A DNA stretch of 64,000 nucleotides. It comes from an uncultured Polaribacter sp. (GTDB taxonomy: Bacteria > Bacteroidota > Bacteroidia > Flavobacteriales > Flavobacteriaceae). The stretch lies in NCBI GenBank assembly GCA_913020555.1, contig CAJWAC010000002.1, forward strand, positions 20,460 through 84,459, written 5' to 3'. The position numbers were made by a program, and so were the translations under genes. Positions 60,291 through 64,000 of the stretch are shown in pieces; position 1 is the stretch's first letter, and every line of letters begins with the position of its first letter. Under the pieces are notes generated by a model. That model was not told the origin of the DNA, did no database searches, and worked only from the letters and a program-made list of their open reading frames with translations.

Positions 60291-62762
60291 ATGAGAATAC
60301 TTTACTTTTCATTATTTTTTATTTTAGTTAGCAATGCTTTTGCACAAACTCCATTATATATTGATGATTTTGACAATGGAATAATCAGTATAGATAATTC
60401 TTCTGCTTTTGATTTTTCAGTTGTAGAAAATAATTTAGAAATTCAAGGAAATGGATCTGGAGGACAATGGACTGCCATTTCATATAAAATGCATTCCAAT
60501 GGAACTGACGCTACCATAAATGTTTCTTCAAGTCCTAAATTATATTTAAAAGCAAAAGCAAATCCTGGTTTAGAGTTTAGAATAGATTTACAAGATGCAA
60601 CTGGCTATGTAACTAACTTAAATGCTACTTCTGTAAATTTAACAGGTAATTATACCATTTACGAATTTGATTTTTCGGGTAAGTTTTCTGACGGTGGTTA
60701 CGGAGGTCCTTGCACAAACGGACCCTGTACCGTAGATGAAACAAAAATTACACATTTATCAATTTTTGCCAAACCAGGAACTGGTGGTTACAACGGAACT
60801 ATTACTATAGACTGGATATCATTAGGTTATCAATACGATAACGGAACGCCAACACCGGATCACACAATAAGATACAATCAAGTTGGATATTTTACGAATA
60901 GAAACAAAATTATTAGTGTCAATTCTCCAAATAATTTTAATGGTTTAAGTTATACCATCAAAAATTCAAGCGATGTAATTGTTAAATCTGGAACAACAGG
61001 AACAACTAATTTTTGGTATGACGCTCAAGAATATGTTTCTAATATTGATTTTTCAGAAATAAACACCGCTGGCGACTATACAATTGATATTGATGGAGTA
61101 ACAGAATCATTTACAATAGGAGAAAATGTATATGAGGATTTAGCAGATGCAGTTTTTAAATACTACTATTATAATAGAGCAAGTACTCCAATAACTTCCG
61201 CTTACGGAGGTCAATGGTCGAGACCAACAGGAATTCCAGACACACAGATTAAAATACATTCTTCTGCTGCAACTGCTGCAAGACCTGAAAATTCAGTAAT
61301 ATCGGCACCAAAAGGATGGTATGATGCAGGAGATTACAACAAATACATCGTGAATAGTGGTATTTCCACGTATACTTTATTAGCAGCTTACGAACATTTT
61401 AATACATATTACGAAACAAAGAATTTTAATATTCCCGAATCAAATAATAATTTACCCGATATTTTAGACGAGGTGTTATGGAATTTAGACTGGATGTTAT
61501 CTATGCAAGATCCTAATGATGGTGGTGTTTACCATAAATTAACTGGATTAAATTTTAGTGGTATAGTAATGCCAAATGAATATAATTTACAAAGATATGT
61601 TGTTAAAAAAAGTACAGCAGCAGCTTTAAATTTTGCAGCAGTTACTGCCACAGCAGCTAGAATTTTTGAAGATTTCGAAAGTGAAATACCAGGTTATAGT
61701 GCAAAATTAATACAAGCATCAAAATACGCTTATGCTTGGGCCAAGGCAAATCCCAATAATTTCTTTAATAACCCAAATGGAGTTTCAACAGGAGAATACG
61801 GAGATTCAAATTTAACAGATGAATTTCAATGGGCAGCTGTTGAGCTTTTTATAACAACTAAAGAAAACACTTATAAAAATGATGTAAGAATTTATACCAT
61901 TGCAAATAATGCACCGAGTTGGCAAGGTGTTGCCAGTTTAGCACTTTTTTCATTAAATCATCATTCTTCATCAATCTCTTCAGATTTAGATATTAATCAG
62001 GCAGAAACTAAATTACTTTCTCAAGCAGATAATATAGAAGCACTGGTAAATAGTTCTCCTATGAGAATAAGTATGGCAGCAAATGATTACGTTTGGGGTA
62101 GCAATGGTATGGCTGCCAATCAAGTATTTTATTTAATCAGAGCATATGAGTTAACCACAGAAACTAAATATCTAGATGCTGCATACACTGCTATGGATTA
62201 TCTACTTGGTAGAAATGGAACAGGATATTCTTACGTTACTGGTTTTGGAAATGTAACACCGACAAAACCACATCACAGAATTTCGGAAGCAGATAATGTT
62301 TCAGAAGCAGTCCCTGGTATGTTGGTTGGTGGGCCGCATCCAGGTCAACAAGACAACTGCTCGTACCCTAGCAATGCAGCTGCAAAATCATTTTCAGACA
62401 CTTGGTGTTCTTACGCATCCAATGAAGTAACGATAAATTGGAATGCCCCAATGTTGTATGCTATTAACGCATTGCAAAATTATCAAAATCAAGAAACTGC
62501 TTTATCAAATGAAGATTTAATTAAAAATGATAATGATGTAAGCATATATCCAAATCCTGTTAGTAGTAATTTATATTTTAACTCTAATTCTCACGATTTA
62601 AGAAATATAGAGGTTTACTCTATTCAAGGAAAAAAAGTTTTTGCTTCTAATGGAACATTAATTAAAAATAATATTGATTTCTCTAGCTTTAAACCAGGTA
62701 TCTATTTTTTGAAATTAAATACAGACAAGGGTTCAATCACAAAAAAAATAATAAAAAAGTAG
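60291..62762 (+). CDS. Glycoside hydrolase family 9 with N-terminal CBM-like and Ig-like domains and T9SS C-terminal domain
   Basis: GWYDAGDYNKY, YLLGRN...SYVTGFG, PHHR, LVGGP and NEVTINWNA motifs; CTD IYPNP...GIYFL...KKIIKK. Confidence 0.92.
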   Translation: MRILYFSLFFILVSNAFAQTPLYIDDFDNGIISIDNSSAFDFSVVENNLEIQGNGSGGQWTAISYKMHSNGTDATINVSSSPKLYLKAKANPGLEFRIDLQDATGYVTNLNATSVNLTGNYTIYEFDFSGKFSDGGYGGPCTNGPCTVDETKITHLSIFAKPGTGGYNGTITIDWISLGYQYDNGTPTPDHTIRYNQVGYFTNRNKIISVNSPNNFNGLSYTIKNSSDVIVKSGTTGTTNFWYDAQEYVSNIDFSEINTAGDYTIDIDGVTESFTIGENVYEDLADAVFKYYYYNRASTPITSAYGGQWSRPTGIPDTQIKIHSSAATAARPENSVISAPKGWYDAGDYNKYIVNSGISTYTLLAAYEHFNTYYETKNFNIPESNNNLPDILDEVLWNLDWMLSMQDPNDGGVYHKLTGLNFSGIVMPNEYNLQRYVVKKSTAAALNFAAVTATAARIFEDFESEIPGYSAKLIQASKYAYAWAKANPNNFFNNPNGVSTGEYGDSNLTDEFQWAAVELFITTKENTYKNDVRIYTIANNAPSWQGVASLALFSLNHHSSSISSDLDINQAETKLLSQADNIEALVNSSPMRISMAANDYVWGSNGMAANQVFYLIRAYELTTETKYLDAAYTAMDYLLGRNGTGYSYVTGFGNVTPTKPHHRISEADNVSEAVPGMLVGGPHPGQQDNCSYPSNAAAKSFSDTWCSYASNEVTINWNAPMLYAINALQNYQNQETALSNEDLIKNDNDVSIYPNPVSSNLYFNSNSHDLRNIEVYSIQGKKVFASNGTLIKNNIDFSSFKPGIYFLKLNTDKGSITKKIIKK

Positions 62763-62881
62763 CATATTTTACATAATATTTATTTTTAATAATTTAATCA
62801 TGCTTTAAATATCGGATACGTAAAAAAAACAATTTAAAATTATACTTTATTTAAAACTGAGTCTTAATTGAATAAAAAGTA

Positions 62882-62911
62882 TTGCCAACAATGTAAATTA
62901 ATATATATTTG
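62882..62911 (+). promoter_or_regulatory. Promoter of the leader-gatC-gatA transcript
   Basis: TTG (62882-62884), 19 nt spacer, TATATTTG (62904-62911); matches the Bacteroidota -33/-7 consensus. Confidence 0.75.
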
Positions 62912-62928
62912 ACAACAATAAAGTATTG

Positions 62929-62976
62929 ATGACAAACAATAATAACAATCGTAATTTCAATAATCCTAATATGTAG
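62929..62976 (+). CDS. Asn-rich leader peptide MTNNNNNRNFNNPNM
   Basis: ATG ACA AAC AAT AAT AAC AAT CGT AAT TTC AAT AAT CCT AAT ATG TAG; 9 of 15 codons are Asn. Confidence 0.85.
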   Translation: MTNNNNNRNFNNPNM

Positions 62977-63004
62977 GACGGAAGGTTGTTGTTTAAAAAT
63001 ATAT

Positions 63005-63035
63005 AAAAGCCTTCCAAATTTGGAAGGCTTTTTTT
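63005..63035 (+). terminator. Attenuator terminator upstream of gatC
   Basis: AAAAGCCTTCCA-AATT-TGGAAGGC followed by T7, ending 13 nt before the gatC ATG. Confidence 0.9.
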
Positions 63036-63048
63036 AATTTATACGAAA

Positions 63049-63315
63049 ATGAGTAAAATAATGACAGTTGACGTTTTGTCAAGTATTAAAGGAGCGCAAG
63101 AATCAGAATCTGTAAATAAATTATTTCAGGTAATTAAAAATGCAAATATATCCAACACAAATAATTTTAGTGATTCCAGTAAAAGTGTTTCTTTAAACCA
63201 TTTACGAGATGATATTGTTATCAATAGCTCAGAAAGAGAGAGAGAAATTATCATTGAAAACTTTCCAAAAGAAAAGAATGGTTATTTAGTAGTTGCTAAA
63301 GTGATAGAAGAATAA
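63049..63315 (+). CDS. gatC: Divergent GatC-like subunit of Asp-tRNA(Asn)/Glu-tRNA(Gln) amidotransferase
   Basis: C-terminal LRDD...NFP...GYLVVAKVIE resembles the GatC tail; 2 nt upstream of gatA. Confidence 0.75.
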   Translation: MSKIMTVDVLSSIKGAQESESVNKLFQVIKNANISNTNNFSDSSKSVSLNHLRDDIVINSSEREREIIIENFPKEKNGYLVVAKVIEE

Positions 63316-63317
63316 AT

Positions 63318-64000
63318 ATGGAATCACAAATACATAAAATTCATCAACAATTGATGAACAAAGAAATTTCATGTACCAATTTAGTCCAAGAGAAATTAGA
63401 GCTACTAAAGCAAAATACTCACAATACAGTCAATTCACTTTTAGAAGATTTAGCTTTAGATTTAGCTACTAAAATTGATGCTAAGATTGAAAAAGGCCAA
63501 GAAATTGGGTTGTTGGAAGGGATTCCTTTTGGAATCAAGGATGTTTATATGGTTCAGGGAACCTTAACCACAGCCAGTTCTAATTTATTAAAAAATTACA
63601 AATCTTCTTATACAGCTAGCGCCATCCAAAAATTATTAGATGCCGGAGCTATTCCTTTAGTGAAAGAAAATTGCGATAGTTTTGGGCATGGTTCTTCATC
63701 AGAAAACACCATTTTTGGAGCAGTAAAAAATGCAATAAATCCTGATTTAGTAGGTGGAGGTTCAAGTGGAGGTTCTGCAGTAAATGTAGCCAAAGAATAC
63801 ACTGTTTTTTCAATTGGTGGGGATACTGGCGGCTCTATTCGTCAACCTGCTGGCTATAATAAAATTTATGGTCTAAAACCCACTTACGGAAGAGTTTCTC
63901 GTTTTGGATTGATGGCTTATGCTTCATCAACAGACTGTGTAGGACCAATTGCAAAATCTATAGAAGATATTAGAATTGTTCTAAATGTAATAAGCGGTAA
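63318..64000 (+). CDS. gatA: Amidotransferase subunit A (amidase signature), truncated by window edge
   Basis: Manual translation from ATG 63318: LEGIPFGIKD, GGSSGGSA, DTGGSIRQPA, GLKPTYGRVSRFGLMAYASS. Open to the window end; not in the ORF track. Confidence 0.9.
   Translation, partial: MESQIHKIHQQLMNKEISCTNLVQEKLELLKQNTHNTVNSLLEDLALDLATKIDAKIEKGQEIGLLEGIPFGIKDVYMVQGTLTTASSNLLKNYKSSYTASAIQKLLDAGAIPLVKENCDSFGHGSSSENTIFGAVKNAINPDLVGGGSSGGSAVNVAKEYTVFSIGGDTGGSIRQPAGYNKIYGLKPTYGRVSRFGLMAYASSTDCVGPIAKSIEDIRIVLNVISG

Follow-up and report, generated by a model that had tools for sequence, protein, structure and literature searches.

The gatC leader and its operon

The window, that is the whole stretch of 64,000 nucleotides analyzed here, reaches at its 3′ end into an operon of the order gatC-gatA-gatB::aspS, which extends past the window. 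A predicted promoter, one short upstream open reading frame (uORF), one G-rich switch segment and one intrinsic terminator precede gatC (Table 1). The uORF, the G-rich segment, the terminator, gatC and gatA all lie where an earlier sequence-only reading had placed them.

Table 1. Positions of the leader elements and of the operon genes
Feature	Position	Strand	Details
Predicted Bacteroidota sigma-A promoter	62882..62911	+	TTG 62882-62884, spacer 19 nt, −7 box TATATTTG 62904-62911; called from sequence, −7 box position kept across pattern matches
Leader uORF MTNNNNNRNFNNPNM	62929..62976	+	ATG at 62929, TAG ending at 62976, 15 codons
Switch segment GGAAGGTTGTTGTTT	62980..62994	+	Predicted partner: Asn codons or terminator 5′ arm
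Intrinsic terminator	63005..63035	+	12-pair hairpin 63005-63032, U tract to 63035
gatC	63049..63315	+	88 aa, divergent; TIGR00135 E 1.6e-5 and PF02686 E 2.3e-4, both below cut-off; precedes gatA
gatA	63318..64000 (past window end)	+	466 aa in total; best match TIGR00132, 427 bits, cut-off 481
gatB::aspS fusion	G000:C2:85177-88512 (outside window)		1111 aa, last operon gene; GatB TIGR00133 and AspRS TIGR00459 over cut-off

The uORF contains nine Asn codons, and five of them are consecutive (codons 3-7). Together with CCTA, the Asn codons also form the 5′ side of a predicted protector helix. With the local base composition, the binomial probability of finding nine or more Asn among 14 codons is ∼3e-7. 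Only 6 of the 32,882 small ORFs (8-30 aa) of the genome contain at least 40% Asn, and the uORF is the richest. The fold of the leader region has a z value of −3.85; none of 200 shuffled sequences was equally stable.

The promoter had been described as a consensus one, which held in part. Its −7 box TATATTTG, read against TAnnTTTG, which we take to be the Bacteroidota −7 consensus, is conserved, whereas a generic sigma-70 scan performed no better than chance (8 sites versus 9.5 expected). Because that scan is uninformative, the promoter call rests on the −7 box and its conservation; transcription would presumably start at ∼62916-62918. Between the trp operon and the leader, the window encodes one 823-residue cellobiosidase-like glycoside hydrolase with a T9SS tail (60291-62762, + strand), and no terminator-like site was called between this gene and the leader promoter.

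Rfam search of the leader gave nothing at the gathering score. Different from the Rfam families Phe_leader (RF01859) and Thr_leader (RF00506), the gatC leader reached only 35.6 bits (the best match) and 23.6 bits against them, with a cut-off of 55. No T-box match was found in 62700-63400, even at E values up to 5, and seven related loci likewise gave no Rfam leader family, T-box or riboswitch at the gathering score.

The last operon product is named 'bifunctional amidotransferase subunit GatB/aspartate--tRNA ligase AspS' in its NCBI homologs, many of which are from Polaribacter (85-89% identity among those listed). The suggestion that Asn supply, not Gln supply, is the role of this GatCAB is supported, as gatB is fused to AspRS and the genome encodes GlnRS. 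It had also been proposed to look for gatB and a non-discriminating aspS downstream; gatB::aspS does follow, and it carries one of two markers of non-discrimination. We take these anticodon-domain markers of the non-discriminating bacterial AspRS to be His31 and Gly83 (numbering of the Pseudomonas aeruginosa enzyme). The His of the RDHG motif, which the P. aeruginosa enzyme of the transamidosome (4WJ3) also has, is present in the fused AspRS and conserved in 120 of 120 of its homologs; the stand-alone AspRS has Lys at this site. At the Gly83 position, the fused enzyme has Asp. The tRNA-Asn of the genome has a U1-A72 pair, the pair required by GatCAB according to passages of PMC4206432 and PMC2330236. 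Most GatC homologs contain one Asn-rich stretch, such as TNNNSFNNNHNN (63145-63170 in the window), and this stretch could make gatC translation also Asn-dependent.

Conservation and reading frame of the leader

The operon was found in 46 of 301 genomes of the family Flavobacteriaceae, 45 of them with upstream DNA (in G224 a contig end coincides with the start of the match). The leader is present at 31 of these 45 loci, including that of the window, and missing at 14. Twelve of the genomes with a leaderless operon keep AsnRS; the two genomes without an asnS match both belong to the leaderless group. Loss of the leader as a consequence of missing AsnRS was rejected as a general rule, because the 12 other leaderless genomes have asnS. 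In a quick GatC+GatA tree, in which only 3 of 44 branches are well supported, the leader pattern needs nine changes, and 5 of 500 shuffles were as low; with so few supported branches, the tree is compatible with one origin of the leader as well as with several. Leaderless operons have a AAAACTTT(C/T)GTAATTT-like box ∼27-42 nt before gatC, which is probably a direct promoter; boxes of this type were seen at L012, L016, L018, L031, L035, L037, L040, L044, L049, L051, L052, L053, L100, L101, L201 and L202.

We also scanned GTDB genomes using the core motif alone as the pattern. The scan gave 98 matches, 80 of which were examined. Although none of these features was demanded by the pattern, 79 of the 80 matches are accompanied by gatC, a terminator, an ATG in frame and, 10-23 nt before this ATG, a TAnnTTTG box. 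The strict switch-segment motif occurs in 75 of the 80, and one of the 80 is an unrelated chance match. The named hosts are nearly all marine Flavobacteriaceae (Algibacter, Polaribacter, Tamlana, Seonamhaeicola, Flavivirga and Mariniflexile). At L022, L042, L109, L116 and L181, insertions of ∼90-200 nt separate the terminator from gatC; the one of L022 contains inverted-repeat-like sequence. No leader was present at 27 loci of ordinary gatA elsewhere in the phylum (42-54% identity), nor at two further gatA loci of the family.

Pooling gave 110 leaders, of which 88 are distinct; each encodes 7-14 Asn. In all 88 an ATG stands in the Asn frame, compared with 2 and 1 for the other frames; the count is independent for the 79 leaders of the GTDB scan and circular for the 31 that an ATG search had yielded. 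The spacing between the box and the core is spread over all three phases (36, 34 and 18 leaders), and the distance between the ATG and the core is 8, 9, 10, 12 or 13 whole codons. Codons −6, −5 and −4 before Phe encode Asn in 81, 81 and 87 of the 88 leaders, with AAT/AAC usage of 61/20, 46/35 and 18/69, respectively. Codons embedded in helices are invariant at the nucleotide level. Either Asn codon can pair with GTT, so some of the synonymous variation could originate at the RNA level; translation and pairing can therefore be separated only by the codons upstream of the helix and by the phase. The in-frame ATG found blind, the whole-codon indels and the AAT/AAC swaps all point to selection of the uORF as a reading frame.

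Phase and codon usage also bear on whether the leader could be an RNA-only switch, such as a riboswitch or a protein-controlled antiterminator, in which the AAY repeats would serve pairing and the frame would be incidental. The AAY codons can pair with GTT/ATT repeats, the helices are 99% paired, and the Rfam matches are weak. However, the in-frame ATG occurs in 79 of 80 matches to a pattern that contains no ATG, the phase varies upstream of the ATG but not downstream of it, Asn is retained at codons beyond the consensus helix, and no T-box or riboswitch reaches the gathering score. We consider an RNA-only switch very improbable.

Alternative RNA structures and the ribosome

The leader is predicted to form three alternative structures. 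In the window, the predicted energies of the protector, the antiterminator and the terminator are −11.0, −11.0 and −16.8 kcal/mol; the means over the 88 leaders are −12.9, −10.0 and −15.8 kcal/mol. In the family-wide register, AACAATAAT pairs with GTTATTGTT and encloses one inner CCTA/TAGG hairpin. Pairing of the switch segment to the Asn run through G-U pairs, as had been suggested, is thus partly upheld: the protector is predicted, but the G-U-rich form of the window is a variant of the family register.

Over the 88 sequences, 99.4% of the protector cells and 99.6% of the antiterminator cells are paired, compared with 34-75% in slid controls. No compensatory changes were found in the protector or the antiterminator; variation there is one-sided only, and shuffles do equally well. 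At the closing pair of the terminator, A-U and G-C are swapped, with 30 cells changed on both sides, and none of 500 shuffles was as high. The upstream alignment proposed in the sequence-only reading thus recovered conserved Asn-rich uORFs with AAT/AAC variation, but covariation in the terminator only.

GGAAGG begins 3-5 nt past the uORF stop in 87 of the 88 leaders. To model the ribosome, the RNA behind it was masked, and transcripts lacking the terminator 3′ arm were folded at equilibrium. With footprints of 9-15 nt, all 88 leaders were predicted to form the antiterminator when the A site was in the Asn run, and none of the 88 when the ribosome was at the stop codon; with a 6-nt footprint, 22 of the 88 still antiterminated with the ribosome at the stop. 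In the modeled early transcript of all 88, segment 2 folds back onto the leader. With full-length RNA of the window's leader at equilibrium, the terminator wins at every ribosome position, and with partial RNA and no ribosome the antiterminator wins in 30 of 31 leaders. The switch would therefore have to be kinetic; the switch of the trp attenuator is likewise held to be kinetic. In the model, termination is set mainly by a stop-codon ribosome covering GGAAGG.

Taken together, these observations suggest that the conserved leader is very probably a ribosome-mediated transcription attenuator, which senses Asn-tRNA and opens the operon when Asn-tRNA(Asn) is scarce. The trp/his-type logic put forward in the sequence-only reading agrees with the conservation, the codon-level signature, the helix geometry and the pathway logic, from which we infer the regulation itself. 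RNA polymerase would start at ∼62917 and a ribosome would load on the uORF. With ample Asn-tRNA, the ribosome would reach the TAG and cover GGAAGG, CCTTCC would pair with the terminator 3′ arm, and one leader RNA of ∼120 nt would be released. With scarce Asn-tRNA, the ribosome would stall on the Asn codons and leave GGAAGGTT free, which would capture AGCCTTCC before the 3′ arm is synthesized and lead to read-through. The fused AspRS would then load Asp onto tRNA(Asn), and GatCAB would amidate it. Asparagine supplied from outside would switch the operon off, since AsnRS loads this tRNA with Asn that is imported or recycled.

The 3′ part of the uORF allows a different reading. TTC-AAT-AAT-CCT and TAG are nearly invariant, which was also seen without search bias in the 31 gatA-anchored leaders, and the two AAT codons after Phe are fixed yet unpaired in the main protector model. 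The translated uORF might thus act through stalling by its nascent peptide or at its stop codon (invariant FNNP-x-x-stop), or it might report general translation or nitrogen status. GatCAB needs glutamine, hence Asn-tRNA also tracks nitrogen. However, Phe is TTC and Pro is CCT in 88 of 88 leaders; that their synonymous codons are never used points to RNA pairing rather than peptide identity. In addition, the asnA and asnB leaders described below retain Asn runs without FNNP. Peptide-mediated stalling or a general status report therefore seems unlikely to us, and sensing of Asn-tRNA remains the preferred reading.

Transcript data raise the question of whether gatC has its own start. Seven marine RNA runs from near-identical organisms cover gatC-gatA; they are available as assembled contigs only, which do not show ends or levels. 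The first contig position is 63055-63085, shortly after the start of gatC, in six of these runs and 62999 in the seventh; a further run, of unrecorded kind, spans the entire stretch. The uORF is covered by none of the seven runs, which, as these are contigs only, is no sign of absence. The contig starts weakly hint that either an RNA 5′ end or a stop of reverse transcription lies near gatC. They could be taken to mean that the leader is an independent, always-terminating small transcript and that gatC is transcribed from just past the terminator. However, the same contig starts would be expected if reverse transcription stopped at the hairpin, if the RNA were processed or if AT-rich sequence dropped out, and the RNA contig that starts at 62999 extends over the terminator into gatC. 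Moreover, neither a TAnnTTTG −7 box nor the promoter motif of the leaderless type occurs between the uORF stop and gatC in any of the 88 leaders, and the U tract is only 13-22 nt from the gatC ATG in 72 of the 88. An internal promoter in this interval, which had been named as an observation that would speak against attenuation, is unlikely for these reasons, and we regard a separate gatC start as extremely improbable.

Asparagine supply and other leaders

The genome, which is 76.5% complete, encodes AsnRS, GlnRS, GluRS and a separate AspRS. The sequence-only reading had asked whether asnA, asnB and asnS are present: asnS was found, and neither asnA nor a canonical asnB was matched in this 76.5% complete assembly. 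One AsnB-like gene (628 aa) scores 325 bits against a canonical asnB cut-off of 499 and passes the broader TIGR01536; it is flanked by weakly glycosyltransferase-like and dehydrogenase-like genes. As it is below the canonical cut-off and located in a polysaccharide-like locus, we read it as a probable polysaccharide amidotransferase.

Among the 301 family genomes, 46 have the operon (gatA), 230 have a canonical asnB and none has both; the Fisher p value of this exclusion, 2e-36, overstates it because the genomes are related. None of the 46 genomes with the operon has asnA, which is present in 6 of the 25 genomes that have neither the operon nor asnB. Of 45 operon genomes, 43 encode AsnRS. Among 401 genomes sampled from the phylum, close gatA homologs (at least 85%) are confined to this family; the other GatA proteins are ordinary, with ∼40-54% identity. 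Because the operon never occurs with canonical asnB, asnA is absent and AsnRS is mostly kept, the operon is likely the cell's asparagine source. As the genome keeps AsnRS, asparagine synthetase, and not AsnRS, is likely the enzyme that the operon replaces. The gene content argues that the annotated GatB-AspRS fusion is an asparagine-biosynthesis module replacing AsnB. Many asnB promoters of the family (L070-L099) have, ∼60-130 nt upstream, AT-rich words of the form GTTT(T/C)AATTG(A/T)AA, noticed by eye; possibly these are a transcription-factor site instead of an attenuator.

Leaders with cognate codons are found at other loci as well. A blind scan of this genome for a box, a short ORF and a terminator gave 11 candidate ORFs, the gatC leader included. 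Directly before trpE, the window contains leader MKFNLNKIWWWSSLKQ with three Trp (WWW; 59819-59769, − strand) and a terminator at ∼59736-59707, which, judged by its sequence, is a classical trp attenuator. The Phe/Tyr-rich leader MLNKNYTRFFFYFYFYNKRRDFVCF precedes, with a terminator, prephenate dehydratase and an aminotransferase (G000:C10:32767, + strand, L268). Both leaders indicate that cognate leader logic is in use in this genome.

Asn-rich leaders followed by terminators were found before asnA at 9 of 22 loci. Five of these have tandem leader and terminator units ∼350 nt upstream of asnA (L233, L235, L249, L250 and L251), and single units were seen at L234, L247, L248 and L243. The unit of L243 contains a GGAAGG/AAGCCTT switch much like that of the gatC leader. 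When three asnA leaders were folded, two gave the same structural alternatives. When 151 genomes of the order were searched with a covariance model built from the gatC leaders, eight non-self matches were obtained, seven of which are plain terminators. The remaining one is an Asn-rich leader, MNIRNINNCNNLNTPLRLRQ, with promoter box and terminator (L264:1501-1647, + strand). It precedes a canonical asnB (at 1689) in a host from another family of the order; at the 30 top asnB loci of the window's family, no such leader was found. With model R1, seven asnA leaders score 39-45 bits and plain AT-rich terminators 40-49 bits. As terminators alone score as high, there is no support for homology between these asnA or asnB leaders and that of gatC.

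The classical attenuators are those of Escherichia coli trpL, hisL, pheL, thrL and leuL. Like these, the gatC leader has one short uORF with a run of cognate codons, alternative protector, antiterminator and terminator structures, a stop codon that positions the ribosome over the switch segment, and a biosynthetic operon downstream. Different from the E. coli leaders, it would sense Asn, its host belongs to Flavobacteriaceae, and the pathway under control synthesizes the sensed aminoacyl-tRNA on the tRNA itself. In pheM-pheST, a leader-peptide attenuator controls phenylalanyl-tRNA synthetase; there, too, the product of the controlled enzyme is the sensed charged tRNA. The route here, however, is a two-step transamidation, which is also the likely source of the amino acid and stands beside a separate AsnRS. 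The aspS2-gatCAB operon of Clostridium acetobutylicum is under Asn T-box control. It shares with the gatC leader the input (tRNA-Asn charging), the target pathway and the choice between termination and antitermination; however, the T-box binds uncharged tRNA directly without a ribosome, and the gatC leader has no T-box match.

In Thermus thermophilus, Deinococcus radiodurans and Bdellovibrio, Asn synthesis is tRNA-dependent, and Asn can be made by the indirect route only, according to passages of PMC2330236 and PMC4206432. As in the organisms described there, AsnRS and GlnRS are present here, asnA and canonical asnB are absent, tRNA-Asn has U1-A72, and GatCAB with AspRS is the likely sole Asn route. 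Different from them, the second AspRS here is of bacterial type and fused to GatB. The same passages describe no leader control, and the Outlook of PMC2330236 names regulation of the indirect aminoacylation routes as an open question. A literature search, with few subscription papers in reach, found no description of an Asn leader attenuator or of a GatB-AspRS fusion, and a term look-up in the main text of PMC2965389 and PMC2864571 gave no mention of asparagine.

We lean slightly toward a broader reading, in which Bacteroidota have an unrecognized class of Asn leader attenuators, placed on whichever unrelated route is used (gatCAB::aspS, asnA or asnB). On the fused transamidosome operon, such a leader would close a loop, the ribosome reading the operon's own product, and it might also serve as a nitrogen gauge through the glutamine need of GatA. 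Attenuation as a mechanism is textbook; what the leader would add is asparagine, which would join the amino acids sensed in this classical way, on an operon whose GatB-AspRS fusion is annotated but apparently unstudied. In cultured marine Flavobacteriaceae, the leader may offer a small, directly testable answer to how the Asn route is regulated.
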